Shown piece by piece: positions 4,461 through 36,635 of a DNA stretch of 39,555 nucleotides; position 1 is the first letter of the stretch; each line of letters opens with the position of its first letter. The stretch is taken from positions 1-39,555 of the forward strand of contig JAFGCP010000309.1 of the NCBI GenBank assembly GCA_016932595.1, written 5' to 3'. This stretch comes from Deltaproteobacteria bacterium (GTDB taxonomy: Bacteria > Desulfobacterota > WTBG01 > CAIYCZ01 > CAIRTM01). Below the pieces are notes generated by a model. That model saw only the letters and a program-made list of their open reading frames with translations, was not told where the DNA came from and did no database searches. The position numbers were made by a program, and so were the translations under genes.

Positions 4461-4468
4461 GGCTGAAT

Positions 4469-4870
4469 TTACTGGGCGTCTTTTTTCAGTTCTGCCACGT
4501 ACCGCATGCGCAGGTCATACAGCAGGGTTTCCAGCAGTTGGCTCTCATCCCGTGCAAGGTTTCCGACGGTTTTTTCCTTTAAAAGTCCAAGTATATCTAT
4601 CGTCTGCTTGGCAAGGGGCAGGTTGCGCTGCGTCTGGTTTGTTGCCGGATCAGGAATATCTCCCAGATGGAAAAGTGCGGATGAACTAAGGGATATGATA
4701 AAAGAGGAGAAATTAATTTCAGGCAGGTCTTTTGCGCTCATGCGATCATGAGAGGCGTTTTTTTTACTTTCGCCTGCTGTTTCCTCCTGCCCTGCTTTTT
4801 TCATTGTTTCGTCCTGCGCGCAAACCTCTTTGTCTTTAAAAGTAAAGCCATTTCCCTGTTTTTCTTCCAT
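4469..4870 (-). CDS. DUF1844 domain protein
   Basis: LPEINFSSFIISLSSSALFHLG..P..NLPLAKQTIDILGLLKEKTVGNL...E..LL..LLYDLRMRYV; ATG at 4870 follows GGAGG; this family is commonly found upstream of ispE. Confidence 0.85.
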   Translation of the reverse strand: MEEKQGNGFTFKDKEVCAQDETMKKAGQEETAGESKKNASHDRMSAKDLPEINFSSFIISLSSSALFHLGDIPDPATNQTQRNLPLAKQTIDILGLLKEKTVGNLARDESQLLETLLYDLRMRYVAELKKDAQ

Positions 4871-4910
4871 ACAGGCCTCCCTCGTCATTTCATGCATACA
4901 TGAGTTTTTA

Positions 4911-5489: not shown

Positions 5490-5529
5490 GAAAATTTTAA
5501 ATCCCTTAGAGTTTTTGTGGGCGGTACTC

Positions 5530-5566
5530 AAAAAAAGAGGATGAAACTGTATGCTTCATCCTCTTT
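5530..5566 (-). terminator. dnaK terminator
   Basis: AAAGAGGATGAA/TTCATCCTCTTT stem with a T-run on the minus strand, about 40 nt after the dnaK stop. Confidence 0.8.
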
Positions 5567-5604
5567 ATTTGATTTAGAGAGTCTTTTGTCAAGAAAAAAC
5601 CTGT

Positions 5605-7509: not shown

Positions 7510-7600
7510 ACTTGCCTCCTTAAATTTTTTCAGAATAGCTGATTTTTATTTTAAATATTAATATAATCTATAAACTAATATAGCTTTTTTCTTCTTGTGA

Positions 7601-7629
7601 AAGATAACCACGAACTGAGGGCGAGTCAA
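7601..7629 (-). promoter_or_regulatory. Putative sigma70 promoter of dnaK
   Basis: TTGACT-N17-TATCTT about 90 nt upstream of the dnaK ATG. Confidence 0.55.
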
Positions 7630-7786
7630 TGGCAGGACTGAAAAAATATACAATTTATTTCAAAGGGTTATGAATTCTGTAGCGCTTTTTTACAGTACAA
7701 CAGCAGTGCTGTTCCGTGATTCCAGGATAGGTGTTCGCGGGGTGACGCTTGTGTGGCTTTGAGAATATAAGCAAAGGCGGATAGAG

Positions 7787-19499: not shown

Positions 19500-20882
19500 T
19501 CATTTTCCAATGCAGAAACGGCTGAAAATGACATCGAGAATATCCTCAGCAGTGGTCCTGCCGGTAATCTCTCCGAGAGCAGCAAGTGCGGCATGCAGAT
19601 CTATGGACACGAGCTCAGGGGCCCGTTCGCACAGCAAACCCGCGGCCGCCTGTCCGAGTGCCTCCCGTGTTTTTTCCAGGGCCGAGCGGTGCCGCGCATT
19701 GGCGATGAGGATATCTGAAGGGGAAATGCCGCCATGGGCGCCGACCATATGGGCAATGGCCTGTTTGAGCTGCTCGATGCCGGTATGGTTCATGGCTGAA
19801 ACGGCGACGGTGCCGGCTGAAGGCAGCAGCGAGGCGAGCTTTTCCGGCCCCCAGGCAGAGGGTAAATCTGTTTTGTTCATGACGGCGATGAAATTTTTAT
19901 GTGCAAGAAGCCCCGCCACCGCATGATCGGCTTGATCAAGGGGCAGGCTTGCATCAAGCACCAGCAGGACAATATCGGCATGCTCTATTTTTACGCGTGC
20001 CCGCTCCATGCCCGCAACCTCAATTTCCTGATCGCTGTTGTCCAGGCCGGCTGTATCGATAAGATGTATCGGCATGCCGCCGATGGTCATGGTTTCCTGA
20101 ATGATATCCCGTGTCGTGCCGGGAATGGCGGTCACGATGGCACGCTCATCACCCAGCAGCGCATTCAGGATGCTGGACTTGCCGACATTTGGCTTTCCGG
20201 TAATAACCGCCTGTACGCCGCTTGCATACAGACAGCCGTCGTGGAATGTCGCGATCAGCCTGCCTGCGGCTTCCCGGACAGCTTGTATCTGTACGGCCAG
20301 CGTCGATGACGCAGCAGCAAGAATATCATCTTCAGGGAAGTCAATGGCTGCCTCAACTTCGGCCGTAATGCTCAGAAGACTGTCGTACAGATGATCTATC
20401 CGCTGCGCGAGCTTTCCTGTCAGCTGGCGCGAGGCTATTTTGAGCCCGATCTCCGACTTTGCCTCAATGACATCAATGACCGCCTCGGCCTGTGTAAGAT
20501 CCATCCGCCCGTTGAGAAAGCCGCGGCGGGTGAACTCACCTGCCCCGGCGAGCCGTGCTCCGGCGTCTATCGTCATGCGCAATATTTTTTCAAGCAGAAC
20601 GATGCCGCTGTGGCAGTTGATTTCAACGACATCCTCTCCGGTATAGGAGCGCGGGGCCTGCATGTAGGAGATAAGGGCTTCATCAAGATCGCTTCCGTCC
20701 TGCGGGTCGATGATGGTGCCGAAGTACAGGCTGTGCGAGCGGAGCGCTTCGGGATTGAAGTTTTTTGATTTAAAAAATTTTGCGACAATGCGGCAGGCTG
20801 CAGGGCCGCTCAGGCGAATGATGCCTATGCCGCCGGCGCCAACTGGTGTTGCGATGGCTGTAATTGTGTCGTGGTGCTGCAT
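19500..20882 (-). CDS. mnmE: tRNA modification GTPase MnmE (TrmE)
   Basis: DTITAIATP, SYTGEDVVE, GKPNVGKSS, PGTTRD, DTAG, NKTD, C-terminal FCIGK. Confidence 0.98.
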   Translation of the reverse strand: MQHHDTITAIATPVGAGGIGIIRLSGPAACRIVAKFFKSKNFNPEALRSHSLYFGTIIDPQDGSDLDEALISYMQAPRSYTGEDVVEINCHSGIVLLEKILRMTIDAGARLAGAGEFTRRGFLNGRMDLTQAEAVIDVIEAKSEIGLKIASRQLTGKLAQRIDHLYDSLLSITAEVEAAIDFPEDDILAAASSTLAVQIQAVREAAGRLIATFHDGCLYASGVQAVITGKPNVGKSSILNALLGDERAIVTAIPGTTRDIIQETMTIGGMPIHLIDTAGLDNSDQEIEVAGMERARVKIEHADIVLLVLDASLPLDQADHAVAGLLAHKNFIAVMNKTDLPSAWGPEKLASLLPSAGTVAVSAMNHTGIEQLKQAIAHMVGAHGGISPSDILIANARHRSALEKTREALGQAAAGLLCERAPELVSIDLHAALAALGEITGRTTAEDILDVIFSRFCIGK

Positions 20883-20917
20883 TGTTCAACCAAAGAAGAA
20901 ATTGATTGCGGCAGGTT

Positions 20918-22441
20918 TTATGGGTATATCAGCAGAGATTTTTTAATTGTTTCATCAATTTTGCTGAACAAAGGGCCGGTTGGCTCCTGTCTGCAGTTTT
21001 CGCAGGTGATTTGGATTGAGATTATTTTTTGATGCCCGACAAGCGTATAGAAATGTGTCATGCACAGGGATGCATTTATCGTTTCCGCCGCTGTTATTTT
21101 GTACCCCTGCCCCCCGCCCATGGTTATAAGGCCATGGGACTCGATTGATGCCCAGGTCCTGTCTGATTTCCCATCCTGAAATCCGCCGATTTTTTTATAC
21201 ATTTCATCTTCGGCATTCCACTGCCCGAACCAGCGCTGAGCTTCGATTGAGACGGTAACCCGTGCCTTATATGAGGCTGTGATTTTTGATTTTCGGGGGC
21301 CGGATGTCTCCTGATGGGCAAAGCCCGCAGGCAGGTTCAGAAAAAAGAAGGCATTTTTGTCCTGCAGGGACTGTACCTCAGGCAGGGTTTTTTCAGGCTG
21401 TTTTATTTCCTCCGCCGGTTTAACTGCCGTCTGCTGTGGTACTGCAGGAGGCGTAAAGGTTGTGCGAATCAAGTCCTGCAGGGATCCTTTTTTGTAAAGG
21501 AAAAAAGCTCCGGCAGCGATGGAGCACAGGACTATGATACCAAGGGCGATACTGAAGAAACGAGTTCTTGTCCGGGGCCCTTCTCCGAGCTCAACTTCAA
21601 GAGTTTCGTTGACAGGAGGCCTTTTTTTCTGCTGCTGGCCGGATACATCAGGGACAATTTTTCCCTGAGAAATTTTCAATGAAGGATCGGCCGCAGCCGA
21701 CTGTGCCTGATCCGCAGTAAGCGACAGATCAATTTTTTCCTGAACATCTATTATGCCCGCTGACAAAAGGGTGTACAGAGCCTTGACGACGGTGAATTCA
21801 TCGTAGCCGCTCTGGTATATGATTTCTTTTATAGTGTTTATGCCGTTTACCAAACGCAGAACGGCATTTTCCTGGTGGTTGAGCGTTGTTTGCCTGTTTG
21901 CCGAAGCAGCATCGGCCGTATAGCGCAGGACCTGATTCCTTGCCGGTATTTGTTTTTCCAGCACGGACATCTCATCCACCCTGCGGGAAGCCTCCAGAAT
22001 TAATTCCATGGTTTCAAACTGCGTGTCTGCTTCGTCCGTTGCTGAAACAGCGCATTCTTCAAACCGGAATTTACCCTGTATCCAGTGAAAAAGGGTGTAG
22101 AGTATATTTTCTACCTGCATGCGGACGAATCTGTCCAGCTCGTCTTTTGAAATGAAGCATTCATCAACCAGCACTTTGCCGAGCCGCTCTTTGCGGTTTT
22201 TGGCTATCTGAAGAGTTTTTTCAAGTTCAATGGAGCCGATGACGCCTTCGCTTCGAAGCAGGTATCCCAGGTGTTTTTCATTGTCGGTGCTGGTGGCGGA
22301 AACTATGGTGCCCTCGCAGAAGTGGACGGTGACCACATCGTCGTCATGAGTAATGCGCAATTTCCCCGTCTTTTTATCATTGGACAGCAGTTGGAAAAGA
22401 CTGGAGAGATAAAAGGTTTCTAGATTGCCTTCAAGTGCCAT
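20918..22441 (-). CDS. DUF4388 (PATAN-like) domain membrane protein with a predicted extracytoplasmic C-terminal domain
   Basis: MALEGNLETFYLSSLFQLL..KKTGKL, LGYLL/RLGKVLV, W..GKFRF, LILEASRRVDE; one hydrophobic segment (FFSIALGIIVLCSIAAGAFFLY). Confidence 0.8.
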   Translation of the reverse strand: MALEGNLETFYLSSLFQLLSNDKKTGKLRITHDDDVVTVHFCEGTIVSATSTDNEKHLGYLLRSEGVIGSIELEKTLQIAKNRKERLGKVLVDECFISKDELDRFVRMQVENILYTLFHWIQGKFRFEECAVSATDEADTQFETMELILEASRRVDEMSVLEKQIPARNQVLRYTADAASANRQTTLNHQENAVLRLVNGINTIKEIIYQSGYDEFTVVKALYTLLSAGIIDVQEKIDLSLTADQAQSAAADPSLKISQGKIVPDVSGQQQKKRPPVNETLEVELGEGPRTRTRFFSIALGIIVLCSIAAGAFFLYKKGSLQDLIRTTFTPPAVPQQTAVKPAEEIKQPEKTLPEVQSLQDKNAFFFLNLPAGFAHQETSGPRKSKITASYKARVTVSIEAQRWFGQWNAEDEMYKKIGGFQDGKSDRTWASIESHGLITMGGGQGYKITAAETINASLCMTHFYTLVGHQKIISIQITCENCRQEPTGPLFSKIDETIKKSLLIYP

Positions 22442-22714
22442 AGCGGTATACGAGTAGTTTTTATTTATATTTAATCAAAAAAAAATGATTTTTACAATCA
22501 ATTCTTTTGCAGTCGCGCTGGCAATGCTTTGACCCGTGCGCCACACGGTCATCCGGCCAAATTCTGCATAAACTGCTGTGCTACGGGGTTTTCTGCTTTG
22601 ATGTGCCGGGGAGCGGTGCCGGGCACTGCTGAAATGTCATAGGAAACGGTGCGCCTGCATGTACAAAGACGGAAGGGTAATCCAGGCCTTGTGCCGTCTT
22701 TGTCAGAATCAGGC

Positions 22715-23371
22715 TTACTGCCGGGGAGCTATGATAACCTTGCGCATGATGCCGTCTCCCCTGCTCCAAGTCGTCAGTTCCGTATCCTGTTTCAGTGTCA
22801 TATGAATGATACGGCGGTCTGCAGCATTCAACGGGGGCGTGGTGACGGTACCCCCTTTTGTTTTTGCTTTTTTACTCAGGCGCATGGCCAGGCCCTCGAG
22901 GTTTTCAACATGGCGGGAGCGGTATCCCTCGGAATCAACGAGAATGTGCGGCATGTCTGCGGCCTGCCTGGCCCGTATTTTATTGAGCAGGTACTGCAGA
23001 GCCTCAAGGGTCTGCCCTTTTTTTCCGATAAAAATGCCGCTGCCGTCACCGATGATGTTAAACACAACTTCATCATGGCTGGAAGCTGTTTCGATGCGCG
23101 CCGCCGGGTCTATGCGCCGGACGATACGATCAAAGAGAGTTTTTAAAGTATCAAGAGCCTCCTGTGCCGTGCTGCACCTGGCTGCCTGCAGCGGTGCTTG
23201 TTTCAGGGCCGCGCGAATTTTTGCCTTCCTCGAGGAGAAGATGGAAAGAAATCTGCCGGGGGTCGGCTCAAGCACCTCAATGTCAAGATTGTCTTCAGTG
23301 GTATGCAGCTGCTGTCCGGCTAGCGCGACTGCTTCTTCAACTGTTTTGGCTTCGACTTCGATGGATTGCAT
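22715..23371 (-). CDS. jag: RNA-binding protein Jag/KhpB/EloR
   Basis: Jag_N (EAKTVEEA), KH (IGKKGQTLEALQYL), R3H (DRRIIH); lies next to yidC. Confidence 0.96.
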   Translation of the reverse strand: MQSIEVEAKTVEEAVALAGQQLHTTEDNLDIEVLEPTPGRFLSIFSSRKAKIRAALKQAPLQAARCSTAQEALDTLKTLFDRIVRRIDPAARIETASSHDEVVFNIIGDGSGIFIGKKGQTLEALQYLLNKIRARQAADMPHILVDSEGYRSRHVENLEGLAMRLSKKAKTKGGTVTTPPLNAADRRIIHMTLKQDTELTTWSRGDGIMRKVIIAPRQ

Positions 23372-25098
23372 TCTTTTCCTCCTGCGGAGCTGATTTTGTT
23401 GTTGATGTAGTATTGCTGAACAATGGATATGACATTATTGACAAGCCAGTAGATGACAAGCCCCGAAGGAAAACTGAGAAACATGAACGTAAATACCAGG
23501 GGCATGAAAAGCATCATTTTTGCCTGCATCGGATCCATGCTTGCCGACGGCGTCATTTTTTGCTGCAGAAACTGCGACAGGCCCATGACAATCGGTGCGA
23601 TATAGGTCGGATCCTTTGCCGAGAGGTCGTTGATCCAGAATGAAACGAAGCTTGCATGCCGCAGCTCGATGGAGTACATCAGCGCATTGTAAAGCGCAAT
23701 GAAGACAGGTATTTGAATCAATATGGGCAGACAGCCGCTCAGCGGGTTTACATTGTATTTTTTGTAGAGCGAAAGCTGCTGGCGGGCGAATTCCTCCTTG
23801 TTGTCTTTGTATTTTTCCTTAAGAGCGGTCAGCTCAGGCTGAATCTTCTGCATGCCCTTCATGGATTCAAAACTTTTATGCGTGAGGGGCCAGAAGAGAA
23901 TTTTTATGATAATGGTCAGCAGGATAATCGCAAGGCCGTAATTGCCGAGAAAACCATAGAAGAATTTGACGCACATGAGCAGCGGCTTTGCGATAATGTC
24001 GAACCAGCCGAAGTCAAGGGTCTTTTCAAGGTGGCTTCCCTGCCGAGCCAGTATGTCCATGTCTTTGGGCCCCATGTAGAGCTGCAGCGGGTACTGTGCT
24101 TCCTGTCCGGGCTGTATGGTAATGGCCGGGAAGAACACCTGATAGGTTACTGCACCATCGGCGGTTTTGCTTATGCGCACCTGTGCGGGCTTCTGATCCT
24201 GCATGAGCAGGGCCGATATGAAATATTTTTCCTCGATGGCGGTCCAGAGAATATCGCCCTCGATAGGTGTTTCTTCCTTTACCTTTTCAATATCCTGCTT
24301 GACGACCTTGTCTTTGAGAAAATAGGTGAATTGTGCCACATCTGCCGTATTGCCGCTGAAGAATCCGCCGGCCTGCTGGGCTGGAACATGAGCCTTCCAT
24401 TCAATGACCGGCGTGCCCATACGGGCGGTTGAGCCGTCATTGCGCAGGGTCAGGGTGAGGCCGAAATTGTAGTCCCTGTCAGTGAACGCGAACTGCTTCG
24501 AGAGTTTCAGCCCCTGCTGGTCATCCTGCGAAAACGTTATGGCGCCCTGTTGCCCGGAATTTCGCAGTCGAAGGCTCTCTTTATCGGCCTGCCACGGCGC
24601 AGTGCCAAGAACGGTTGAGCCGGCATCGATAAAGAGCGTGCGCAGGGGGAGTTCCTGAGCGGAACGCCCATGGAGAAGTTGCTTGTCCTGCTGGCCTGCA
24701 TCTGCCGGAAAGTCGGGCCCGATGTTGAAAAGTTTTTTCATCAGGCGTTCCGCAGCCGTCGGCGCGAGGCTTTCCTTGTACTTGTGGAGCGTGAAGCTGC
24801 CGGGCCCTCCGGTTGCCCGCACAAAAAGTGCGGTAAAAAGGCCTGTTTCGACAGTAATGTCCCGGCCTTCATCAATGATGGGCGTCTGGGGAAGCAGAGC
24901 GATTTTTGGCGCATCATGTATTGTTTGAGGCTGAGCAACTACCGCTGTGGAGGGCGTGGGGATTTGCGCTTTTTCAGCTGTCGCGACAGCCGGAGTGTCG
25001 GCCTTTTTGGCGGGGGGAGGGGTGAACAGGTACTGATAGCTGAAAAGTACGGCAATGGACAGCGCAACAGCCAGAAGAATTCTTTTTTCATTATCCAT
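23320..25098 (-). CDS. yidC: Membrane protein insertase YidC
   Basis: N-terminal TM, periplasmic domain, DFGWF, GNYGLAII, GCLPILIQIP, PSGLVIYW. Confidence 0.98.
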   Translation of the reverse strand: MDNEKRILLAVALSIAVLFSYQYLFTPPPAKKADTPAVATAEKAQIPTPSTAVVAQPQTIHDAPKIALLPQTPIIDEGRDITVETGLFTALFVRATGGPGSFTLHKYKESLAPTAAERLMKKLFNIGPDFPADAGQQDKQLLHGRSAQELPLRTLFIDAGSTVLGTAPWQADKESLRLRNSGQQGAITFSQDDQQGLKLSKQFAFTDRDYNFGLTLTLRNDGSTARMGTPVIEWKAHVPAQQAGGFFSGNTADVAQFTYFLKDKVVKQDIEKVKEETPIEGDILWTAIEEKYFISALLMQDQKPAQVRISKTADGAVTYQVFFPAITIQPGQEAQYPLQLYMGPKDMDILARQGSHLEKTLDFGWFDIIAKPLLMCVKFFYGFLGNYGLAIILLTIIIKILFWPLTHKSFESMKGMQKIQPELTALKEKYKDNKEEFARQQLSLYKKYNVNPLSGCLPILIQIPVFIALYNALMYSIELRHASFVSFWINDLSAKDPTYIAPIVMGLSQFLQQKMTPSASMDPMQAKMMLFMPLVFTFMFLSFPSGLVIYWLVNNVISIVQQYYINNKISSAGGKECNPSKSKPKQLKKQSR

Positions 25099-25193
25099 GA
25101 ACGGTTCCTTATTTAAGGATTTATTGCATGGAGTCAGCAGACATGCTGAATCCCGAGTCGCTTTTGTTGTGTCGTGTGGCAGCAGTAACAGGC

Positions 25194-25445
25194 TTAGACC
25201 GGATCATAGCCACCCGGATGAAGCGGATGGCATTTGAGCAGACGGCAGCATGTGAGTCGGCATGCTTTAAAAAAAGGGTACTTTGCAAAGGCCTCTATGG
25301 CATAATTGGAGCAGGTGGGGATAAAACGGCAGTGAGAACCCAAAACGGGGGATACCAGCACCTGATAACAGCGTATGAGAAATATGGAGAGCCTGTTAAT
25401 CCGGCTGTCGGGCTCCGATACAGAACAAAGTAATTGTTTATTCAT
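25194..25445 (-). CDS. yidD: Membrane protein insertion efficiency factor YidD
   Basis: YQVLVSP, CRFIPTCSNY, RLLKCHP..PGGYDPV. Confidence 0.96.
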   Translation of the reverse strand: MNKQLLCSVSEPDSRINRLSIFLIRCYQVLVSPVLGSHCRFIPTCSNYAIEAFAKYPFFKACRLTCCRLLKCHPLHPGGYDPV

Positions 25446-25806
25446 TCAAATGCGATTCGGGTTCGTGAGCATGTGCATCAAATAACCGGTCGATTTCGCT
25501 GGCGATGCCCGCATAGAGCAGACGGTCTGCGCCTGTTTTTGCAGTGAAAACAATATCGCTTGAAGCTGGAAGCAATGCTTTATGCAGCCTGAAATATTCC
25601 CGTATACGGCGCTTTACATGATTGCGCTGTACCGAGTTGCCGATCTTTTTGCCGACGGTTATCCCCAAACGGCTCCATGAAAGGTTGTTTCCCAAAATTG
25701 CAACCTTGAAGTGCCGCGACTCTTTCCTTGCTCCTTTTCGATATATAATTATGAATTCAGCGCTTTTTTTTATTCTTTCTGCACGCTTTAAGGAGAAGTT
25801 GGACAT
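25438..25806 (-). CDS. rnpA: Ribonuclease P protein component
   Basis: RLGITVGKKIGNSVQRNHVKRRIRE; synteny. Confidence 0.95.
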   Translation of the reverse strand: MSNFSLKRAERIKKSAEFIIIYRKGARKESRHFKVAILGNNLSWSRLGITVGKKIGNSVQRNHVKRRIREYFRLHKALLPASSDIVFTAKTGADRLLYAGIASEIDRLFDAHAHEPESHLNE

Positions 25807-25953: not shown

Positions 25954-26264
25954 GATAGTCTCCCTGTGTGCTTATGGCTACTGCTTTTGATTAATGTGTT
26001 TTGTACTGCTACTGGTTGAACTGTATGGACTTCCTCGAAGTTCAAGTATATAAAAAAACATAATTCAACTGCATTGTCAAGGTTATTCATATCATTTTAT
26101 ACTGCAGCAGGCGCTAAAAATTCTCATGGAACATGTTGTTTTGCCGGCAGCCCCCCCTAAATGCTGTTTGCCGCAGCCGGGATGCCTGTATTTTAAGATA
26201 TGCAACTCAAAGCCAATATGTGGTATGTTTAAACACATACAGCACTCTCAAGGATAGAGCTACC

Positions 26265-28556
26265 ATGGCTAGAGAAGATGACAGGCTCCAGCGCCAGATG
26301 CGTGAGGAGCAGAAGCGGCGCAAGCGGGAACAGAGTATTATTTTCATTGCCATACCGCTTGTCATTGCCCTTACGTCGCTGTTGATGTATGTGACCGGTC
26401 GCAGCGGCGAGGCTCTTCTGCCGCAGAATATTCTTGTATTCAGCCTCATCAATCTGAATGCTATTTTGCTGCTGCTGCTGCTTTTTCTTGTCGTGCGCAA
26501 TGTTGTGAAACTTTTTTTCGAGCGCAGAAGGGGCATTTTGGGGTCGAAGCTGCGCACAAAGCTGGTCATAGCTTTTGTGGGCCTGTCACTGGTGCCGACC
26601 ATGCTTCTTTTCTGGGTGTCCATCAGTTTCATAACCAATACGATTGAAAACTGGTTCAGCTTTAAAGTTGAGAATTCTCTGGAAGAGTCCCTCACGGTCG
26701 TTGATGCCTATTACCGGAACTCGTCCTCAAAAGCGCTTCACTACGCCCACCAGATTGCAGGAAGCATCGCAGCAAAAAAAATGCTCGGCGAGCGCGCCTC
26801 GGAGCCCTTATGGACTCTGGTTGCTGAAAAACAGTCCGAGTACGACCTTGGCGTGGTCGAGATATTTTCAGCCAGCGGAGCGCAGCTGGTCAAGGTTGCC
26901 CGTGCCGATGTGCCCGAAAAGGATTTTATAGGATCAGATGCGGCGCTTGTGCAGCTGGCTCTTGAAGGCAAGGAGGTTACCCGCATTCAGCCGGTTAACG
27001 ACGGAGATATCGTTCGGGGCGTTGTCCCGGTGCGGACTGCTGGCGGCAGGCAGGAAATAATCGGCGCCGTTATTGTAAATTTTTATAATCCCAAGAGCCT
27101 TGTCATCAAAATGGACGGGATCAACCGGGCGTATCAGGAATATAAACAGCTTAAAATATCCAAGGGACCCATCAAGGGAATTTATATTATTCTGCTGTCT
27201 GCAGTGACGCTGCTGATTATTTTTTCTGCTACGTGGTTCGGATTTCACCTTTCAAAGGTTATATCCGTTCCCATCAGTTCACTCGCGACTGCGACGCAGC
27301 AGATAGCTCAGGGGAATCTGGATGTTGTGATAGAGCCGTCGTCAGACGACGAAATCGGCAGCCTGATACAGTCGTTCAATAAAATGACCCATGACCTGAA
27401 AGCCAGCACGCAGCAGGTTGAATCAACAACCGGCAACCTGCGGGAAACCATTCGCGAGCTTGAGCACCGGCGGCTGTATATGGAGGTTTTGCTTGATAAT
27501 GTCGCCTCGGTCGTTGTTTCTACCGATCAGGACGGCGTCATAACGGCATTTAATAATTCAGCGGAGCGCATGTTCGCTACCACCTTTGCGCAGGCCGTCA
27601 ACCGCCCGTACGGTGAAGTGTTTGCCCATGAAGAGCTTGCGCCGCTGCGGGATTTTATAAGCGAGGTTCTTTCCTGCCGGCTTCGATCCGTCGAGCAGCA
27701 GATAGCCCTGTCGCTTGCCGACAGGATGGTGTTTTTGTACGTGCGCTCCAATATGTTTTTTGACGCCGACGGCACAAGCATGGGGCTTGTTCTGGTTGCC
27801 GAAGACCTCACCCAGCTGCAGCAGGCGCAGCGGGCATTTGCCTGGAAGGAAGTCGCTCGCAGGATCGCCCATGAGGTGAAGAACCCGCTGACGCCGATCA
27901 AGCTTTCAGCGCAGCGTTTGAAGAAGAAGTTTCAGCATCAGATATCCTCTGACGCGGGGGTGTTTGATGAATGCACAACGGTTATCATCAATCAGGTCGA
28001 TGAACTCAAGACCATGGTCAATGAGTTTTCAAGTTTTGCCCGCATGCCGGCAACCAATCCTCTGCCCAATGAGCTCAATGAAGTAGTTGAAGAGACCCTT
28101 GCATTGTACCGTGAAGCGCATAAAACCATTGTGTTCAGCGCCGTGCGAGAACTGGAGGCAATACGGTTTAATTTTGACCGGGACCAGATCAAGCGGGTGC
28201 TTATCAATCTGCTTGACAATGCGCTGCACTCCATGGAAAATGGCGGGACAGTAACGGTCAAGACAGCATATAATCAGGCCCTTGACGTGGTGATTATCGA
28301 GGTTGCGGACACCGGCAGCGGCATCCCGCCTGCGCTTAAAACCAAAATTTTTGATCCTTATTTTTCAACAAAAAAGGCCGGCACCGGCCTTGGCCTGGCG
28401 ATCGTCAATACGATAGTGTCAGATCACAATGGATTTATTCGCGTGCGCGACAATCATCCCAACGGCGCCTGCTTCATTATTCAGCTGCCGGTGTCACCGG
28501 TTATAAGTTTCAGAAGGGAAACATATAATGAAAAATTTAACAATACTGCTGGTTGA
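26265..28556 (+). CDS. ntrY: NtrY-like membrane sensor histidine kinase (TM-HAMP-PAS-HisKA-HATPase)
   Basis: GSKLRTKLV, HAMP DEIG..FN.M, AWKEVARRIAHEVKNPLTPI, NLLDNA, DTGSG, GTGLGL; start MAREDD. Confidence 0.92.
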   Translation: MAREDDRLQRQMREEQKRRKREQSIIFIAIPLVIALTSLLMYVTGRSGEALLPQNILVFSLINLNAILLLLLLFLVVRNVVKLFFERRRGILGSKLRTKLVIAFVGLSLVPTMLLFWVSISFITNTIENWFSFKVENSLEESLTVVDAYYRNSSSKALHYAHQIAGSIAAKKMLGERASEPLWTLVAEKQSEYDLGVVEIFSASGAQLVKVARADVPEKDFIGSDAALVQLALEGKEVTRIQPVNDGDIVRGVVPVRTAGGRQEIIGAVIVNFYNPKSLVIKMDGINRAYQEYKQLKISKGPIKGIYIILLSAVTLLIIFSATWFGFHLSKVISVPISSLATATQQIAQGNLDVVIEPSSDDEIGSLIQSFNKMTHDLKASTQQVESTTGNLRETIRELEHRRLYMEVLLDNVASVVVSTDQDGVITAFNNSAERMFATTFAQAVNRPYGEVFAHEELAPLRDFISEVLSCRLRSVEQQIALSLADRMVFLYVRSNMFFDADGTSMGLVLVAEDLTQLQQAQRAFAWKEVARRIAHEVKNPLTPIKLSAQRLKKKFQHQISSDAGVFDECTTVIINQVDELKTMVNEFSSFARMPATNPLPNELNEVVEETLALYREAHKTIVFSAVRELEAIRFNFDRDQIKRVLINLLDNALHSMENGGTVTVKTAYNQALDVVIIEVADTGSGIPPALKTKIFDPYFSTKKAGTGLGLAIVNTIVSDHNGFIRVRDNHPNGACFIIQLPVSPVISFRRETYNEKFNNTAG

Positions 28557-30690
28557 CGATGAACCTTCCATTGTGAATTCGCTTCGCGGCAGTCTTGAGG
28601 ACGAAGGGCATATACTGCTTACGGCTTCTGACGGCACCCGAGCCCTCGAGATCGTGCAATCTCATCCCGTGGACATTATTTTTCTCGATATCTGGCTTCC
28701 CGGGATGGACGGCATTCAAACCCTCAAAGCTGTCAGGGATTTTGACAGTGCTATAGAAGTTGTTATGATGACCGGTCACGGCACGGTGAACACGGCGGTT
28801 CAGGCCGTCAAGCACGGCGCCTTCGATTTTCTTGAAAAACCTTTTTCGTTTGATGCTGTTGTCGATGTAATAAGAAAAATAAAAGAAAAGCAGCAGGTGT
28901 CCGGTAAAGGCTCAGCAGGATCGAAAGCAGCGGACAGCAGCGGAGAACTGCCTGATTTGTCCGGAGAGAGCGATGCCATTTTAAGGGTTATGGACCAGAT
29001 CAAAAGCGCTGCATCCGGCACAGGGCATATTCTGCTTTTGGGAGAGATCGGGACGGGTAAGGAGCATGCGGCCCAGCTGATCCACAGCGGAGCGGGATTT
29101 AAGAAAAAAACCTTTACGAAGATCAACTGCGCTTTTTTGACGCCTGCTGAGCTCGAGGCAAAACTGTTCGGCGAAAACCAGCCCGGCAGGCAGGGCCTGC
29201 TGACCGGAGGGCTTTCAGGTGTGCTTTTCCTGCAGGCGCTTGATACTGCCCCGCCCGACATGCACAAGCGGCTTGCCGACCAGCTCGGCCAGCTGCTGCA
29301 GACGGGAGAAGGCGGGCTGCGTGTCGTCGCAGCGACGATTAAAACAGCGCCTTACGGAGTTTTGAAAAAGGCCCTTGCCGAGAGCTTTCAGCATACGATA
29401 CTGCTGCCGCCCCTGCGCGAGCGCCGCAGCGATATACCCGTTATGCTCAATTCATTTCTCGCCCGGTTTTGCAGGGAATATGGCTGCAGGGAAAAGCACT
29501 TTGCTGACGAGGCTCTTGAACTTCTGGTAAACTATGATTGGCCGGGCAATGTTAAGGAACTGAAGAACCTCACTGAAAAAATGATTGTTTCGGTGCCGAC
29601 AATAACCATTTCAGCCCAGGATTTGCCCTCGACGATACGCGAAGAGGCCCATCCTGTCTTCTCCCGCTCCTATGAGCACTTCTCAAGCATGGCAGAGGCG
29701 GAAGTTGCCTGGCGCAAAAATTATCTGCTGCATCATTTGCGCAAAAACGATCGCAATCTGTCAAGGACAGCTGCCGCAATACATATCAGGGAGAAGGAGC
29801 TGAAAAAATTAATCAAAGAATACGGCATTGCTTTTGCGAAAGAAAATCCGTCAGGTAAACGCTTTCAGAGAACGCTCAAACGGGCCATGGTGGTGAGCGG
29901 GCAGGGGCTGCATTCGGGAGACAAAACAGGGCTTATTTTAACGCCGCTGCCTCCCGGCAGCGGCATAGTATTCGGCAATATTTCAAGCGAAGATACGATT
30001 CCGGCATCCATTGAGTATGTGGTGTCGACCGACTATTCAACGTGTCTGCAGAATACCAACTCAACAGCCCGCACGATAGAGCATTGCCTCGCAACGCTGC
30101 ATTCCTATCGCATCACAAATCTTATGATCAAGATCAATAATGAAGTGCCCATCATGGACGGTTCTGCCGTTGATTTTTGTAAGATGATTGAGGATGCGGG
30201 TATTGAAGAGCAGGATGCTCCTGCCGATGACATCGTCCTTACCGAAAAATTTGTTATCGGTGACGTCGATGGCTCTAAAAAATACATGATAGTCGAGCCG
30301 GCGGAGCGATTTTCAATTCATTATATGCTGCAGTACCCAAAACCGGTCGGCCGGCAGGAATACACCTTTATCATGAACGACGAGGAATCCTTTAAGAAGG
30401 AGATTGCTCCGGCGCGCACATTCGGCTTTTTACGCGATATTGAGGCGCTTCAGGAGCGGGGGTTGGCAAGCGGCGGCAAGCTCAATAATTTTATTCTTAT
30501 CGACAATGAGAAGATTGTGAACACCGAGCTCCGGTTTCCCGATGAATTTGTGCGGCATAAAATTCTAGACATGATAGGAGACTTTTATTTGCTGGGCCGC
30601 CCCATCCGCGCACGGATAACTGCAAATATGACAGGGCATACCGACAATACAACGATGGTTCGTATGATTCGAGACCGCATGCATCTCTGA
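28528..30690 (+). CDS. lpxC: Fusion protein: NtrX-like REC + degenerate AAA+ + HTH joined to UDP-3-O-acyl-GlcNAc deacetylase LpxC
   Basis: REC (LVDDE, FLDIWLPGMDG, EKP); WPGNVKEL; from about 29866 QRTL..GQGLHSG, TIEH, EVPIMDGSA, IAPARTFGF, DEFVRHKILD, GH; single uninterrupted ORF. Confidence 0.93.
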   Translation: MKNLTILLVDDEPSIVNSLRGSLEDEGHILLTASDGTRALEIVQSHPVDIIFLDIWLPGMDGIQTLKAVRDFDSAIEVVMMTGHGTVNTAVQAVKHGAFDFLEKPFSFDAVVDVIRKIKEKQQVSGKGSAGSKAADSSGELPDLSGESDAILRVMDQIKSAASGTGHILLLGEIGTGKEHAAQLIHSGAGFKKKTFTKINCAFLTPAELEAKLFGENQPGRQGLLTGGLSGVLFLQALDTAPPDMHKRLADQLGQLLQTGEGGLRVVAATIKTAPYGVLKKALAESFQHTILLPPLRERRSDIPVMLNSFLARFCREYGCREKHFADEALELLVNYDWPGNVKELKNLTEKMIVSVPTITISAQDLPSTIREEAHPVFSRSYEHFSSMAEAEVAWRKNYLLHHLRKNDRNLSRTAAAIHIREKELKKLIKEYGIAFAKENPSGKRFQRTLKRAMVVSGQGLHSGDKTGLILTPLPPGSGIVFGNISSEDTIPASIEYVVSTDYSTCLQNTNSTARTIEHCLATLHSYRITNLMIKINNEVPIMDGSAVDFCKMIEDAGIEEQDAPADDIVLTEKFVIGDVDGSKKYMIVEPAERFSIHYMLQYPKPVGRQEYTFIMNDEESFKKEIAPARTFGFLRDIEALQERGLASGGKLNNFILIDNEKIVNTELRFPDEFVRHKILDMIGDFYLLGRPIRARITANMTGHTDNTTMVRMIRDRMHL

Positions 30691-30773: not shown

Positions 30774-31463
30774 ATGAGCAATTCCCTGAATGTTGAGAAG
30801 AGCAGCGCAGCGGGTCCGGGTTCTTCTTCACGCCGCGAGCCTGACCAGATGGGCGCCGGCCGTACCCGCCTCTACCTTGCGCGGCATGGCGAGCTTGTCA
30901 CCTCCCATGAATGGCGGTATGTGGGCCATTTGGATGTAGCGCTCAATGATAAAGGACGGGCGCAGATAGCCCGCCTTGCCCGCAGGCTGAGCATGGAAAA
31001 AATAGATGTACTGCTGTCAAGCGACCTTATGCGCACGGTCGAGTCCGCCTGGATCATCGGCGCAGCCATCGGTCTTGAGCCGGCTGCTGAGCCTGCTTTC
31101 AGGGAGATACATCTTGGCCAGTGGGAGGGCTTGACGCGCGAGGAGATTACGGAGCGTTTTACGCAGGAGTTTGATCTTCGTTCCGCCGATATAGCCGGCT
31201 ACAGGATACAGGGCGGGGAGAGCTTTGCCGACCTGCGCGACCGCGTCATACCGCGGCTGACAGCCTGCCTTGATGAGCACCAGGGCAGGAATGTGCTGCT
31301 GGTGGCCCATGGAGGAGTGAACCGCATTATTCTGTGTCATGCCCTTGGGCTTGATTTAAACATGCTGCCCCGCATCGATCAGGCATATGGCTGCCTGAAT
31401 ATCATAGATTTTTTTGACGGCGTCCCGGTCGTTCACCTGATGAATGAAACGCCGTTTGATTGA
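30774..31463 (+). CDS. Histidine phosphatase family protein (CobC/phosphoglycerate mutase-like)
   Basis: LYLARHGE, SSDL.R, EI..G.WEG, GGES, VAHGG. Confidence 0.9.
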   Translation: MSNSLNVEKSSAAGPGSSSRREPDQMGAGRTRLYLARHGELVTSHEWRYVGHLDVALNDKGRAQIARLARRLSMEKIDVLLSSDLMRTVESAWIIGAAIGLEPAAEPAFREIHLGQWEGLTREEITERFTQEFDLRSADIAGYRIQGGESFADLRDRVIPRLTACLDEHQGRNVLLVAHGGVNRIILCHALGLDLNMLPRIDQAYGCLNIIDFFDGVPVVHLMNETPFD

Positions 31464-32358
31464 CTGGCTGCCGCCTGCGTATGCCTTGCCGCGGGGAGCG
31501 GGTTCGGCTGCCCGCGGTTCTGTAGCGGAAGATGCTCGTGGCAGCCTCTTGGGACACTGTATGGAACAGGCCGTTTATATACACTGCAGCGATCAGCTGC
31601 GCTACCTGAGTGATGATTTTACGCGGCTGTATTTCGGAGCGGAATTTTGTGAGCGCCTGATACCGCCGCGGCTTGAGCTTCAAACGGCGCTGCGCAGCGC
31701 CCGCGAAAGATCACTCGGCTTTACCTTTATGACCCCGTTTGTGACAAACCGGGGACTTGAGCAGCTCGAAGAGCTGCTGGCCGTGCTTGAGCAGAGCCTG
31801 CCTGATGCTGAAGTTGTTGTGAATGACTGGGGGGTGCTTCAGCTGCTGCGCAGCGAGCATCCCCGGCTCAGGCCCGTGCTCGGTCGGCTGCTCAACAAGA
31901 GCAAGCGCGGTCCGCGCCTTATGAATATTTTCGAGCAGCTTCCCGCCGAAACAAAGAGCTACTTTCAGGGCTCCAACCTTGACGTGCCGGCAGCCGTCCG
32001 CTTTCTGGCGCAGCAGGGCATCAGCCGCGTGGAGTTTGACAATCTTCTGCAGGGCCTGAACCTTGAGGGCACGGATGCAGGCCTTCACAAGTCGCTCTAT
32101 GTACCGTTTGCTTTTATTTCCGCAACCCGCTTCTGCCTGAGCGCCAACTGCGATGATCCGGTAAAGATGGGCTCAATCGGCATTTTTCCCTGCGGCAGAG
32201 AATGCCTGAAGTACAGCTTCAACCTGTATAATCCGGTCATGACCCTGCCGCTTATACGGCGCGGCAATGCTGTTTTTTTTATACATGAAACCATACCCGA
32301 TGCTGTTACCAGGCATCAGGTCGACCGGATTGTCGTGCAGCCGGAGCTGCCGGTCTGA
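31444..32358 (+). CDS. Divergent U32-family TIM-barrel protein (UbiV/TrhP1-like partner subunit)
   Basis: LYFGAEFCERLIP, TPFV, EVVVNDWG, LGRLL, RVEFDN, TRFC...C...PCGREC, RGN. Confidence 0.7.
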   Translation: MKRRLIDWLPPAYALPRGAGSAARGSVAEDARGSLLGHCMEQAVYIHCSDQLRYLSDDFTRLYFGAEFCERLIPPRLELQTALRSARERSLGFTFMTPFVTNRGLEQLEELLAVLEQSLPDAEVVVNDWGVLQLLRSEHPRLRPVLGRLLNKSKRGPRLMNIFEQLPAETKSYFQGSNLDVPAAVRFLAQQGISRVEFDNLLQGLNLEGTDAGLHKSLYVPFAFISATRFCLSANCDDPVKMGSIGIFPCGRECLKYSFNLYNPVMTLPLIRRGNAVFFIHETIPDAVTRHQVDRIVVQPELPV

Positions 32359-32360
32359 GC

Positions 32361-33368
32361 ATGAAGAAAATGAAGATACTCTCTCCGCTTGACAGCATCG
32401 AAGAAGTCGACAGTCTTGCAAGGGCCGGGGCAGGAGAATTTTTCTGCGGAGTCCTGGAAGACAGCTGGTATGAGAAATATCCGGTCATTTCCATCAACAG
32501 GCGGCCTGCGGGCAAAGGGCATTTCCGGCGCTTTGATGATTTGAAAGAAGCGGTCGCAAAAGCTCACGGTCTCGGCATACCCGTATATTTTACGCTCAAT
32601 GAGCATTATTACACGCAGGCGCAATACGATTTAATCAGGCGGTATCTTGACGGGGCGACAGGCGCAGGTGTCGATGCTTTTATCCTTACCGATTTCGGGC
32701 TTCTGCAGTTTATAAAAGAACAGCGCTATCCGGCGGCCATGCATATCAGCACCGGCGGAACGGTGTTCAACTGGCGCTCCGCAGCTTTTTTCAAACAGCT
32801 GGGCGCCTCCAATATTACCTTCCCGCGCCATCTCTCGATTGCGGAAATAGAGACTATTACGGCAAAGATGCCGCCTGTGGACACAACGGTTTTTGTGCTC
32901 AATTCCCGCTGCATAAACATCGACGGCTTTTGTACGTTTCAGCACGGGCTGGCGCGCAAAGAAGTGCCGCCCATGTTCAAAAACGCCTGCATGCTGCCTT
33001 TTGAGGTGCAGGTGTGCTCCAGCGATCAGAGCCTTCCTTTCATGCGGCAGGCATGCATGATAGAGCGGCAGCGCATATGGGAGCGGGTGCATGTTGATGA
33101 CCATCCCTGCGGCGCCTGCGCCCTGTGGGAATTTAAAAAGCTCGGCATCGGCAGCCTGAAAGTCGTCGGCCGCGGCAACCCCATTGAGCGCAAGCTGTGC
33201 GATGTGAATTTTTTAAAAACCCTTTTGGCCAGGCTTGATGAAAGCCCGGGGCAGGCTGAATTCCGCTCATCCGCCCGCATGCTGTATACGGCAACCTATA
33301 AGCGCGCGTGCAGAGCCGCTATGTGCTATTATCCCGAAGTGATGGCTGCACAGCAGGAGGGATCGTGA
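32361..33368 (+). CDS. U32-family Fe-S protein (UbiU/TrhP-like)
   Basis: ILSP, GAGEFFCG, YFTLN, GVDAFILTDFG, HISTG..VFN, FPRHLS, CINIDGFC..H..C, CGAC, SLKVVGR. Confidence 0.88.
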   Translation: MKKMKILSPLDSIEEVDSLARAGAGEFFCGVLEDSWYEKYPVISINRRPAGKGHFRRFDDLKEAVAKAHGLGIPVYFTLNEHYYTQAQYDLIRRYLDGATGAGVDAFILTDFGLLQFIKEQRYPAAMHISTGGTVFNWRSAAFFKQLGASNITFPRHLSIAEIETITAKMPPVDTTVFVLNSRCINIDGFCTFQHGLARKEVPPMFKNACMLPFEVQVCSSDQSLPFMRQACMIERQRIWERVHVDDHPCGACALWEFKKLGIGSLKVVGRGNPIERKLCDVNFLKTLLARLDESPGQAEFRSSARMLYTATYKRACRAAMCYYPEVMAAQQEGS

Positions 33369-35570: not shown

Positions 35571-36635
35571 ATGGGAAGAACGGTTGTTTTGAAGGACACA
35601 TGCTTTCTGGGCCATGTAACCCAGCATGGCCATCCGGAAAGTCCCGAGCGTCTGGAGGCAATTTATGCCATGCTTCAGAATGCTGATATGGCAGGATGTG
35701 TCGAAGAGATTTCCCCGCGCCGGGCGGCAAAAGCCGAGATTGCTCTGAATCACTCACCGGCCTATATTGATCGTATTGCCGCCACGGCAGGCAGGCCTCC
35801 CCTGAGCCTTGATCCCGATACCGGCACGTCTGAAGGTTCCTGGAATGCAGCTGCACATGCTGTGGGCGCGGTGCTGGACGGTATAGACAGGATACTTTCA
35901 GGGGCGGCTGATAATGCTTTTGCCCTGGTTCGGCCTCCGGGGCATCATGCCGAATACAGCCAAGCAATGGGCTTTTGCCTGTTTAATAATATAGCTATCG
36001 GTGCCCGCTATTTGCTTGAGAAGCACAACATGCAGCGGGTTCTGATTTTTGACTGGGATATTCATCACGGCAATGGAACGCAGCACTCTTTTTATGCCAA
36101 CCCTCAGGTACTGTATGTGTCAACTCACCAGTATCCCTACTATCCGGGAACGGGTGCTTTTGAAGAGACGGGGGACAATGCGGGCAGGGGGTTTACCGTC
36201 AATGTTCCTCTGTCGGGGGGGCAGGGCGACAGTGATTATGCCTGCATTTTACGTGAGATACTTGTGCCCCTTGCCCTTGAATACCAGCCCGAATTCGTGC
36301 TGGTGTCGGCAGGTTTCGACATTTACCAGCATGACCCGCTCGGCACTATGGAGGTAACCCCGCAGGGTTTTTATGCCATGACAGACATTATCAGAGAACT
36401 GGCCGATACGGTCTGCGGCGGCAGGCTGCTGCTTGTTCTTGAGGGCGGCTATCATGTGCTGGGCATAGCAGAAGCAGTGAAGCAGACCCTGCGTGCATTG
36501 AGCAGCACCTGCGGTTCACCGGTCAAAAAACCTGTCTGTTCGGGGGAGGATGCCCGGATTCTGCCTGCAACCCGTGCGAGCATGGATAAAGTAAAAAAAC
36601 TGCATTCGGCTGCCTGGAAGGTTTTTCGTCAGTGA
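35571..36635 (+). CDS. Histone deacetylase-family Zn-dependent deacetylase
   Basis: HPESPERL, RPPGHHA, GFC, DWDIHHGNGTQ, SAGFD, LEGGY. Confidence 0.95.
   Translation: MGRTVVLKDTCFLGHVTQHGHPESPERLEAIYAMLQNADMAGCVEEISPRRAAKAEIALNHSPAYIDRIAATAGRPPLSLDPDTGTSEGSWNAAAHAVGAVLDGIDRILSGAADNAFALVRPPGHHAEYSQAMGFCLFNNIAIGARYLLEKHNMQRVLIFDWDIHHGNGTQHSFYANPQVLYVSTHQYPYYPGTGAFEETGDNAGRGFTVNVPLSGGQGDSDYACILREILVPLALEYQPEFVLVSAGFDIYQHDPLGTMEVTPQGFYAMTDIIRELADTVCGGRLLLVLEGGYHVLGIAEAVKQTLRALSSTCGSPVKKPVCSGEDARILPATRASMDKVKKLHSAAWKVFRQ

Follow-up and report, generated by a model that had tools for sequence, protein, structure and literature searches.

Can a sensor kinase act directly on the enzyme that commits a cell to lipid A synthesis? 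This question is raised by a locus on a contig of 39,555 nucleotides (nt) from a sediment bacterium (Deltaproteobacteria bacterium, assembly GCA_016932595.1, contig JAFGCP010000309.1, positions 1 to 39,555 of the forward strand; this whole stretch is called the window below). There, the gene for an NtrY-like sensor histidine kinase overlaps a gene in which a response regulator is fused to LpxC, the committing enzyme of lipid A synthesis. The answer that we favour, and regard as moderately probable, is that NtrY phosphorylates the receiver (REC) domain and that its phosphorylation state directly controls the LpxC enzyme, the AAA+ and helix-turn-helix (HTH) segments in between being relics of a sigma54 activator. 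In the best reading of the locus and its relatives, transcriptional control of lpxC would have become direct phospho-control of the enzyme. The parts of the system are as follows (coordinates in the window; aa, amino acids; ORF, open reading frame).

26265..28556, + strand: NtrY-like sensor histidine kinase gene, 763 aa from the most likely ATG at 26265 (Pfam)
28528..28556, + strand: 29 nt shared by the 3' end of ntrY and the beginning of the fusion gene, an operon-type junction (ORF coordinates)
28528..30690, + strand: fusion gene, 720 aa, encoding REC, degenerate AAA+, lid, HTH and LpxC (ORF, Pfam, NCBIfam, homologues)
28543..28872, + strand: REC domain, residues 6-115 (PF00072, 2.2e-30, 105.5 bits)
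28687-28689, + strand: phospho-acceptor D54 in FLDIW (REC alignment)
28960..29415, + strand: degenerate AAA+ core, residues 145-296 (partial Sigma54_activat match)
29416..29652, + strand: AAA+ lid subdomain, residues 297-375 (PF25601, AAA_lid_14, 5.2e-23)
29704..29829, + strand: Fis-type HTH remnant, residues 393-434 (aligns with the C-terminal HTH of 5m7n)
29830..29865, + strand: 12-residue linker, the fusion junction (low model confidence, low conservation)
29866..30669, + strand: LpxC (UDP-3-O-acyl-GlcNAc deacetylase) domain, residues 447-714 (PF03331, 4e-84; TIGR00325)

The initial annotation, made from the letters of the window, had described a 720-aa reading frame overlapping ntrY, with a receiver domain, an AAA+-like region, an HTH-like segment and a full LpxC domain. 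In this frame (28528..30690), Pfam recognised receiver, partial AAA+, lid and LpxC domains, placed the start of LpxC at nt 29866 as proposed, and found NtrY_N, HAMP, PAS, HisKA and HATPase_c in the kinase, whose gene shares 29 nt with the fusion. Over the LpxC half, the PF03331 match scored 282.7 bits (cut-off, 27) and covered profile positions 1-266 of 268, and the NCBIfam lpxC equivalog TIGR00325 scored 265.6 bits (cut-off, 187.25). The C-terminal 280 residues align to solved LpxC structures (1e-51), and the Zn and catalytic motifs EH, HKILDxIGD, GH, TFGF and GLHSG are in register with those of Pseudomonas aeruginosa LpxC; the protein stops 6 residues past the LpxC Pfam domain. The receiver has the PF00072 fold with its acidic pocket, Asp, Thr/Ser and Lys. 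Alignment with Brucella NtrX and P. aeruginosa LpxC confirmed that the FLDIW phospho-acceptor and the EH, HKxxD and GH residues are kept, as had been claimed. The segment called HTH-like was not picked up by Pfam at E<=0.01 in the window protein; it does align with the HTH of NtrX structure 5m7n, and the N-terminal 440 residues as a whole have full-length Brucella NtrX (5m7n) as their best structural match (E 1e-53, residues 5-434). The remark that no Met precedes the QRTL start of the LpxC domain also holds: counting Met only, there is none between M388 and residue 447, and the next is M454. The known fusion of LpxC to FabZ is a different protein, since NF009667/PRK13188 scored 216.2 bits against a cut-off of 465 and matched the LpxC part only, and no FabZ family is among the Pfam matches of the window protein.

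A single frame of this kind might be produced by an assembly or gene-calling error that unites two genes; the source genome is fragmented (460 contigs, 76% complete), and a few relatives have interrupted N-terminal frames. However, the same unbroken frame occurs in more than 100 independent assemblies of several sources, the fusion is present in 31 of the 42 genomes of the window's class, and a contig from an unrelated study spans the junction (29484-30032) with 28 substitutions and no gaps. The artefact explanation was rejected on these grounds, and we give it next to no credence. Among the best 120 database matches listed (NCBI, JGI, ENA and Logan; identity down to 47%), all 120 carry LpxC with AAA+/lid and 116 carry REC too, the other 4 being fragments of 517-629 aa. 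Within the class, fusion follows family: it was found in 17/17 genomes of family f1 (own genome counted), 4/4 of f2, 9/11 of f4 and 1/1 of f6, and in none of f3 (0/8) or f5 (0/1). Two further fused class genomes are truncated by contig ends. All frame breaks in relatives lie upstream of the HTH-LpxC junction and none at it, and no indel was seen in any sequencing run compared over the stretch, the run with a perfect match being probably the source and not independent. REC-AAA+-HTH-LpxC is a true fusion.

The fused gene is also the only lpxC found. It is the sole PF03331 match in its own genome, and in every fused genome among 41 related genomes searched there is a single LpxC locus, the fused one; a second match in genome G012 is a contig-edge fragment, and genome G028 (87% complete) gave no LpxC match. 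LpxB, LpxK and Kdo transferase (WaaA) were found in the window's own genome. Judged from a genome that is 76% complete, the fused protein may serve the Raetz pathway as the cell's deacetylase. Information might instead flow in reverse, with the LpxC domain acting mainly as a substrate or product sensor that tunes the regulator, or the enzyme might have changed substrate. The fused LpxCs do sit on a long branch (~1.0) and score ~275-290 bits in Pfam, as against ~360 bits for free ones. Identity to the window LpxC domain separates the two groups as well, with all fused domains at 48% or more and all free ones, those of the same class included, at 40% or less. Against a reversed flow or a changed substrate stand the invariance of all catalytic and Zn residues, the presence of a sole LpxC in genomes with LpxB, LpxK and WaaA, and the existence of minimal forms, described below, that have no DNA-binding output to tune. 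We consider this explanation very improbable.

Which parts of the long protein are kept was assessed in 114 full-length sequences (113 database proteins of 700-760 aa and the window protein). Residues D10, D11, D54, T82 and K104 of the receiver are invariant (114/114), as are H462, E518, H519, T631, H677, K678, D681, D685 and H704 of the LpxC domain. We take the Zn and catalytic positions in Escherichia coli LpxC numbering to be H79, H238 and D242, and E78, H265, T191, K239, D246 and H19. The mean top-residue frequency is 0.78 in REC, 0.79 in LpxC, 0.70 in the lid and 0.65 in the HTH; it is 0.50 in the AAA+ core, the least conserved domain, and 0.35-0.54 in the linkers, with 0.37 at the fusion junction. 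Lid residues R299, D302 and N341 are invariant, and in the HTH T414 is kept in 110/114, A415 in 109/114 and L425 in 114/114.

The AAA+ core itself has decayed. In the window protein, the Sigma54_activat match covers residues 145-253 (3e-15; profile positions 2-117 of 168), Walker A is intact (GEIGTGKE), Walker B reads LFLQAL and the GAFTGA loop is missing. Two hallmarks of the NtrC family of sigma54 enhancer-binding proteins (EBPs) are thus missing, the GAFTGA loop for contact with sigma54 and the pairing of Walker A with a Walker B of the form hhhhDE for ATP hydrolysis. The same holds across the 114 sequences: G172, G175 and G177 of Walker A occur in all 114 and K178 in 113, the position of the Walker B glutamate is S or A in 107 and E in none, and the GAFTGA loop is absent from a region that is variable. 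Because Walker A is kept and both the Walker B glutamate and GAFTGA are lost, the module can probably bind nucleotide, with neither the usual hydrolysis nor sigma54 contact being possible.

To place the fusion in a wider context, 401 genomes sampled from the phylum were compared at E<=1e-90, and 70 of them gave a match. In 25 of the 70 the match is of the long type and covers both halves (families f1, f2, f4, f12, f50, f61, f75 and f86). The other 45 match over the LpxC part only (47-60% identity), in open frames of ~280-520, ~700 or ~1400 aa; architecture was resolved for fetched representatives, and the other short-frame genomes are assigned by frame length only. Two frames of ~1400 aa were discarded as stop-to-stop artefacts that overlap ntrY in another frame. 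The following architectures were found.

720-795 aa: REC-AAA-lid-HTH-LpxC (window, L027, L028)
704-708 aa: REC-AAA-lid-LpxC with no recognisable HTH (L023 and L026 of family f61)
438-478 aa: minimal REC-linker-LpxC (L020, L024, L029 and L031 by Pfam; L021, L022, L025 and L030 by BLAST)

REC and LpxC are the unit common to all variants. The minimal proteins, ~420-480 aa long overall and devoid of AAA+ and HTH, are abundant: the best 120 matches of each of two queries carry PF00072 and PF03331 only, and an exhaustive search at E<=1e-30 returned 2158 clusters (50% identity), with minimal forms down to ~32% identity. Where they are named, they are called plain LpxC, under labels that include Deltaproteobacteria, Desulfobacterales, Candidatus Binatia and Methylomirabilota. 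Their receivers are intact: D20, S91 and K113 never vary, and D19 and D63 are kept in 90% or more. The linker between REC and LpxC is highly variable in length and sequence. In L021, L022 and L031, ntrY lies directly upstream of the minimal gene. That REC-LpxC proteins without AAA+ and HTH exist makes a direct action of the receiver on the enzyme more plausible.

A maximum-likelihood tree was calculated from 44 LpxC domains, 36 of them fused (20 long, 16 short) and 8 free (4 from the window's class and 4 from elsewhere in the phylum). Fused and free LpxCs are split by a branch with 100/100 support that is present in 100% of bootstrap trees; the fused LpxC domains are one clade. Within it, the long forms occupy the base, and the 16 short forms are all contained in a single subclade (support, 86/95) nested among long ones, the short state needing 2-3 changes on the tree. 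A quick preliminary tree had put the short forms basal and the careful search puts the long forms there, so that this order is moderately supported.

Unfused relatives in families f3 and f5 of the same class suggest what the AAA+ module once was. Here, lpxC is followed by a gap of 0.7-0.8 kb, ntrY and a regulator gene, all on one strand, and identity to the window proteins is 47-53% for NtrY (full length), 32-35% for the regulator and 37-40% for LpxC. The free regulators of these split genomes are canonical sigma54 activators: L012, L014 and L015 have GAFTGA and LFLDEI, and L013 has GAFAGA and LLLDKI. Both GAFTGA and the Walker B glutamate were lost in 7/7 fused proteins compared. As the unfused counterparts carry GAFTGA, a sigma54 activator that has degenerated is the better description of the fused module. 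Upstream of lpxC, 3 of the 4 split loci have an element TGGCAT-N5-TTGC, 1-2 mismatches away from what we take to be the sigma54-type -24/-12 consensus, at -61 (L012), -62 (L014) and -7 (L015) from the called lpxC start; the start in L015 is probably called ~15 codons too early. No such element was found in 450 nt upstream of the window ntrY or within 390 nt upstream of ntrY in 14 fused or linked loci, the sole matches there being two with 2 mismatches at -393 and -429 (background, 0.14 per kb).

These comparisons bear on the name NtrX-like, which the initial annotation had given to the regulator half. The resemblance is real: residues 1-434 can be aligned with NtrX 5m7n over its entire length, including FLDIWL, Walker A, the lack of GAFTGA and the Fis-type HTH, and the layout (REC-AAA+-HTH, no GAFTGA, encoded after ntrY) is that of an atypical EBP by the features given in the accessible part of PMC6158489. 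Identity with NtrX did not survive. The NtrX equivalog NF051870 scored 246.7 bits against a cut-off of 600 (residues 5-434, profile positions 3-452), the unfused counterparts are GAFTGA-bearing sigma54 activators, and NtrX differs in having no enzyme domain and in keeping the DE of Walker B (LYLDEV). The likeness is probably due to convergent decay and not to orthology, because it is the unfused counterparts from the same class that carry GAFTGA.

The window kinase has the domain order of an NtrY sensor kinase, with NtrY_N (PF19312; weak, at 25.1 bits against a cut-off of 23.2), HAMP (53.8), PAS_4 (39.7), HisKA (36.0) and HATPase_c (86.3); an alternative upstream ATG at 26133 would give a protein of 807 aa. 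Full-length orthologues with 40-57% identity adjoin fused or split lpxC systems in other genomes. Linkage was counted in 40 fused loci, some of them duplicates of one genome: ntrY lies directly upstream in 24 of the 40, that is, in 24 of the 34 informative ones, and these 24 include 13/13 of the f1, f2 and f4 loci from genome searches. Six loci are uninformative or borderline (L023, L025, L026, L029, L037 and L094). Each of the five unlinked genomes searched (5/5) has exactly one full-length NtrY orthologue elsewhere (44-49% identity), and no REC or AAA+ regulator gene is near the orphan ntrY in these five. An orphan kinase with an orphan REC-LpxC is the pattern expected of a cognate pair, between which phosphotransfer is inferred.

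The neighbours of the orphan kinases were recorded as well. A DUF4390 gene lies directly upstream in three loci (L095 7778-8458, L096 6656-7270 and L099 3265-3975), and RseC/MucC (G404) and SmpB (G054, G129) genes are also found. DUF4390 (PF14334) had no match in the window's own genome, a result that is uninformative given that the control matched nowhere. In L095 (G369:C2), a Kdo transferase gene at 4247-5608 on the minus strand (PF04413, 8.5e-50) overlaps the 3' end of the orphan ntrY at 5539-7767, which makes a second link between an NtrY-like kinase and lipopolysaccharide (LPS) synthesis.

All sequence-level claims of the initial annotation held up; its further proposal was that phosphorylation by NtrY may switch LpxC activity, oligomer state or stability. 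The mechanism that we favour can be laid out from these observations. The NtrY-like membrane kinase, encoded just upstream, would phosphorylate receiver residue D54, and the phosphorylation state of the receiver would set the level of committed-step lipid A synthesis through the enzyme itself, most likely by altering REC-LpxC packing or oligomeric state. The AAA+ and HTH segments would be what is left of a sigma54 activator that, in an ancestor, governed the transcription of lpxC. In the long form, the relic, unable to activate sigma54, would probably be a nucleotide-binding scaffold or dimerisation module; alternatively, it may sense nucleotide or retain residual DNA binding as in NtrX.

Structure models give a mixed view of how the receiver could reach the enzyme. 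For the window protein, the AlphaFold2 model has a mean predicted local distance difference test score (pLDDT) of 82.7 and a predicted template modelling score (pTM) of 0.46. The LpxC segment has block pLDDT values of mostly 80-96, the HTH remnant forms three helices, and linkers 126-141, 375-379 and 438-443 have pLDDT <50, so that the domains look like beads on a string in this model. The model of a minimal REC-LpxC relative has pLDDT 83.9 and pTM 0.79, with residues 132-168, a 37-residue linker, disordered. As LpxC makes up ~61% of the minimal chain, a pTM of 0.79 would imply confident mutual placement of REC and LpxC. The LpxC part of this model has the LpxC fold, superposing on solved LpxCs with TM(target) 0.82-0.94 and a root-mean-square deviation of 1.5-2.4 A, and no solved chain spans both REC and LpxC of the model (TM(query) <=0.58).

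The beads-on-a-string arrangement would also suit a bifunctional protein whose halves are uncoupled, in which the N-terminal part is an NtrX-like, sigma70-type DNA-binding regulator under phospho-control and LpxC is constitutively active, the fusion serving co-expression or stoichiometry. Conservation of the HTH region (0.65), its alignment with the NtrX HTH, the retained Walker A and the lack of fixed REC-LpxC packing in the long-form model all speak for this; so does Brucella NtrX, the top structural match, which the accessible part of PMC6158489 describes as an atypical EBP repressing its own promoter. However, the HTH is unrecognisable in the f61 forms, and the abundant minimal forms have dispensed with AAA+ and HTH altogether and yet keep an intact receiver. 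A palindrome that such a regulator might bind was not found either: a scan for exact 5-mer inverted repeats in 450 nt upstream of ntrY revealed nothing shared in 7 diverged fused loci, and nothing was shared in the 4 split loci, although this is a crude scan that a degenerate site could escape. Sharing was seen only in one pair of close relatives (shuffles gave at most 1-2). A fusion for co-expression only would, moreover, leave the long branch and the shared clade of fused LpxCs unexplained. An uncoupled protein of this kind seems unlikely to us.

Phosphorylation might also leave catalysis alone and govern how much enzyme there is or where it is located, with the receiver acting as a regulated degron, an adaptor-binding module or a recruiter to the membrane kinase, in place of the C-terminal FtsH degron of E. 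coli. In E. coli, the LpxC degron sits in the C-terminal tail. Free LpxCs extend 18-35 residues past the end of the window protein and fused ones only 0-8, so that fused LpxCs are without this tail; their linkers are flexible and variable, and LapB (NF008757, a full-length model) was above the cut-off in 0/41 genomes, fused and split alike. Neither element of E. coli-type FtsH/LapB control, the degron tail or LapB, was thus found. On the other hand, unfused relatives are equally without a LapB match, which uncouples the lack of LapB from the fusion; the neighbourhoods examined share no protease or adaptor gene beside the fusion, and the minimal-form pTM of 0.79 points to a defined intramolecular arrangement. 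We judge control of amount or location to be distinctly improbable, less so than a reversed flow. Matches to the LapB zinc ribbon family PF18073 in 37/41 genomes were discarded: the 28-position model matches RadA and so makes one false LapB call per genome, the control was positive in Gram-positives, and the match in the window's own genome (G000:C5:4894-4977; L100 1874-3244) is the N-terminal zinc ribbon of RadA (TIGR00416, 589 bits).

Several points weigh against direct phospho-control of LpxC, or against steps of the history proposed for it. That NtrY passes its phosphate to the receiver, and that phosphorylation then affects the enzyme, are both inferred. No fixed REC-LpxC contact is predicted for the window protein (pTM 0.46, disordered linkers), and the argument from the pTM of the minimal form is indirect, with no coordinates or predicted aligned error behind it. 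In the long forms, the good conservation of Walker A, the lid (0.70) and the HTH (0.65) shows that selection acts on these parts, and DNA or nucleotide binding may persist. Ten of the 34 informative loci show no adjacent ntrY although their flank upstream of the LpxC domain is 3.9 kb or longer (L020, L024, L027, L028, L030, L036, L040, L041, L042 and L044, of which L028 and L042 are from one genome). The TGGCAT-N5-TTGC-type element is absent upstream of lpxC in L013, the fourth split locus, and the three genomes that have it are kin from one family and count as one observation. The branch leading to the fused clade is long (~1.0), which leaves its root uncertain. Five of the 31 fused class genomes are without a single clean frame from residue 1 (G002, from residue 45; G003, REC in another frame; G010, one TAG; G036, from residue 91; G040, one TAA), and no RNA record is among the listed database holders of the stretch; an RNA run compared over it matched only short conserved pieces with loose ends. 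In G003:C35:42137-44288, L035, L039, G010 and G040, the receiver is in another frame or there is one internal stop, through either sequencing error or real decay of the receiver, and several of these are long-contig metagenome-assembled genomes (MAGs).

With direct control of the enzyme as the preferred reading, the architectures can be arranged as a history. An ancestral NtrY-type kinase and a sigma54 activator would have controlled lpxC transcription; the activator would then have been joined to the N-terminus of LpxC, a step that, given the position of lpxC ahead of ntrY in the split genomes, called for a rearrangement. With signal and enzyme on one chain, the sigma54 machinery would have decayed and been deleted in several lineages, leaving REC-LpxC as the functional core. 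We are more tentative, and stop a little short of an even call, on the wider proposal that REC-LpxC proteins form a class of enzymatic response regulators not described so far, with the steps of the conversion from transcriptional to post-translational control preserved in living genomes, from a sigma54 activator beside lpxC, through a fusion with GAFTGA and ATPase lost and then with the HTH lost, to a bare REC-enzyme.

Response regulators with enzymatic output domains include CheB, PleD/WspR and RpfG. They have, like the minimal REC-LpxC, a receiver, a flexible linker, an enzyme and a histidine kinase partner. In contrast to enzymes of signalling or chemotaxis, the output here is a housekeeping enzyme of biosynthesis that commits its pathway and is the only copy found, and the window form retains the relic AAA+ and HTH between receiver and enzyme. 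In LpxC-FabZ (PRK13188), LpxC is naturally fused to a second domain as well, but there the partner is C-terminal and metabolic (a dehydratase). The FtsH/LapB/YejM control of E. coli differs in that fused LpxC has a short C-terminus and LapB was found in 0/41 genomes, and a phosphorelay would take the place of regulated proteolysis as the input.

In the natural systems compared next, a two-component system is linked to lpxC through transcription. NtrYX systems share with the window the kinase domains NtrY_N, HAMP, PAS, HisKA and HATPase_c and the position of ntrY directly upstream. In Rhodobacter sphaeroides, loss of ntrYX raises lpxC mRNA 8.8-fold, as given in the accessible part of PMC7240162, and in the portions of PMC7240162 and PMC12444477 that are accessible, the link between NtrYX and lpxC expression in alphaproteobacteria, where NtrYX is linked to the envelope as well, is an indirect, transcriptional one only. 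In Brucella, NtrX is described as an atypical EBP that represses its own promoter (PMC6158489, accessible part). Another parallel is DVU2931/DVU2934 of the sulfate reducer Desulfovibrio vulgaris, a dedicated two-component system aimed at lpxC; in the accessible part of Rajeev et al. 2011 (PMC3333781), lpxC is the single target of DVU2934, and in Syntrophobacter fumaroxidans lpxC lies directly upstream of the operon with the orthologous regulator, the same arrangement as in the split genomes here. DVU2931/DVU2934, which is likened here by its description, differs in exerting transcriptional control through separate proteins and in having an HD-GYP regulator in its operon.

The remaining surroundings of the fusion contain two further features.

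26074..26103, + strand: promoter-like site TTGTCA, 18 nt, TATACT (consensus scan, 10/12; pattern match only)
30774..31463, + strand: histidine-phosphatase-superfamily gene directly downstream of the fusion (PF00300, 1.5e-57)

The promoter-like site sits in the 460-nt gap between the divergent rnpA and ntrY. The histidine-phosphatase-superfamily gene is a possible operon member and, conceivably, a phosphatase of the system: in 20 f1/f2 loci the fusion is followed, at a distance of 67-754 nt, by a homologue with 55-91% identity, and none was found downstream in the f4 locus L016 or in the loci of other classes examined. Upstream and divergent from ntrY is a conserved cluster of mnmE, DUF4388, jag, yidC, yidD and rnpA (19500-25806, minus strand), in which the DUF4388 protein (506 aa, 20918-22441) is uncharacterised. 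Downstream, a 304-aa reading frame without a Pfam match and a U32 peptidase-family gene (31444-33368, plus strand) are followed by a DnaJ-like gene, tatC (minus strand), an HDAC-type deacetylase gene (35571-36635) and the RNase Y gene. Two observations were made among more distant database matches. A full-length fusion (L037, 58% identity) lies on a contig of 3163 nt whose title, Promethearchaeota archaeon, places it with the Asgard archaea; the contig is most likely bacterial and wrongly binned. In Anaeromyxobacteraceae and Myxococcales MAGs (L046, L048-L050, L053 and L054), matches cover query residues 1 to 432-443 only, without LpxC, and stretch over ~2.9 kb of DNA, pointing to larger regulator genes with several domains.

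No description of REC-LpxC or NtrX-LpxC was found in the literature, subscription-journal censuses and domain-architecture databases being outside the search; in such databases the architecture is certainly visible. The text of a 2025 review (PMC12444477) has none of the terms 'fusion', 'fused' and 'response regulator', and in its accessible part the control of LpxC outside Enterobacteria is described as largely open, with only an indirect transcriptional influence of NtrYX. What is new here is the graded series, the single clade of fused LpxCs, the sigma54 activator in the unfused state, and the loss of GAFTGA and of the Walker B glutamate in fused forms. Databases name the fused proteins plain LpxC, which makes their regulatory half invisible in annotations.

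The control of LpxC is understood mainly in Enterobacteria, through FtsH/LapB/YejM proteolysis. If the reading proposed here is true, a receiver on the sole LpxC would be a third control logic, direct phospho-control, and would provide a purifiable system in which to ask which envelope signal an NtrY-type kinase reads. The graded architectures are a rare natural record of a regulator moving from control of a gene to control of its product, and they show an AAA+ activator decaying into an NtrX-like atypical EBP. Collectively, the findings suggest that in this sediment bacterium, and in the many relatives that share the fused LpxC, the lipid synthesis of the outer membrane may be switched directly by a sensor kinase.

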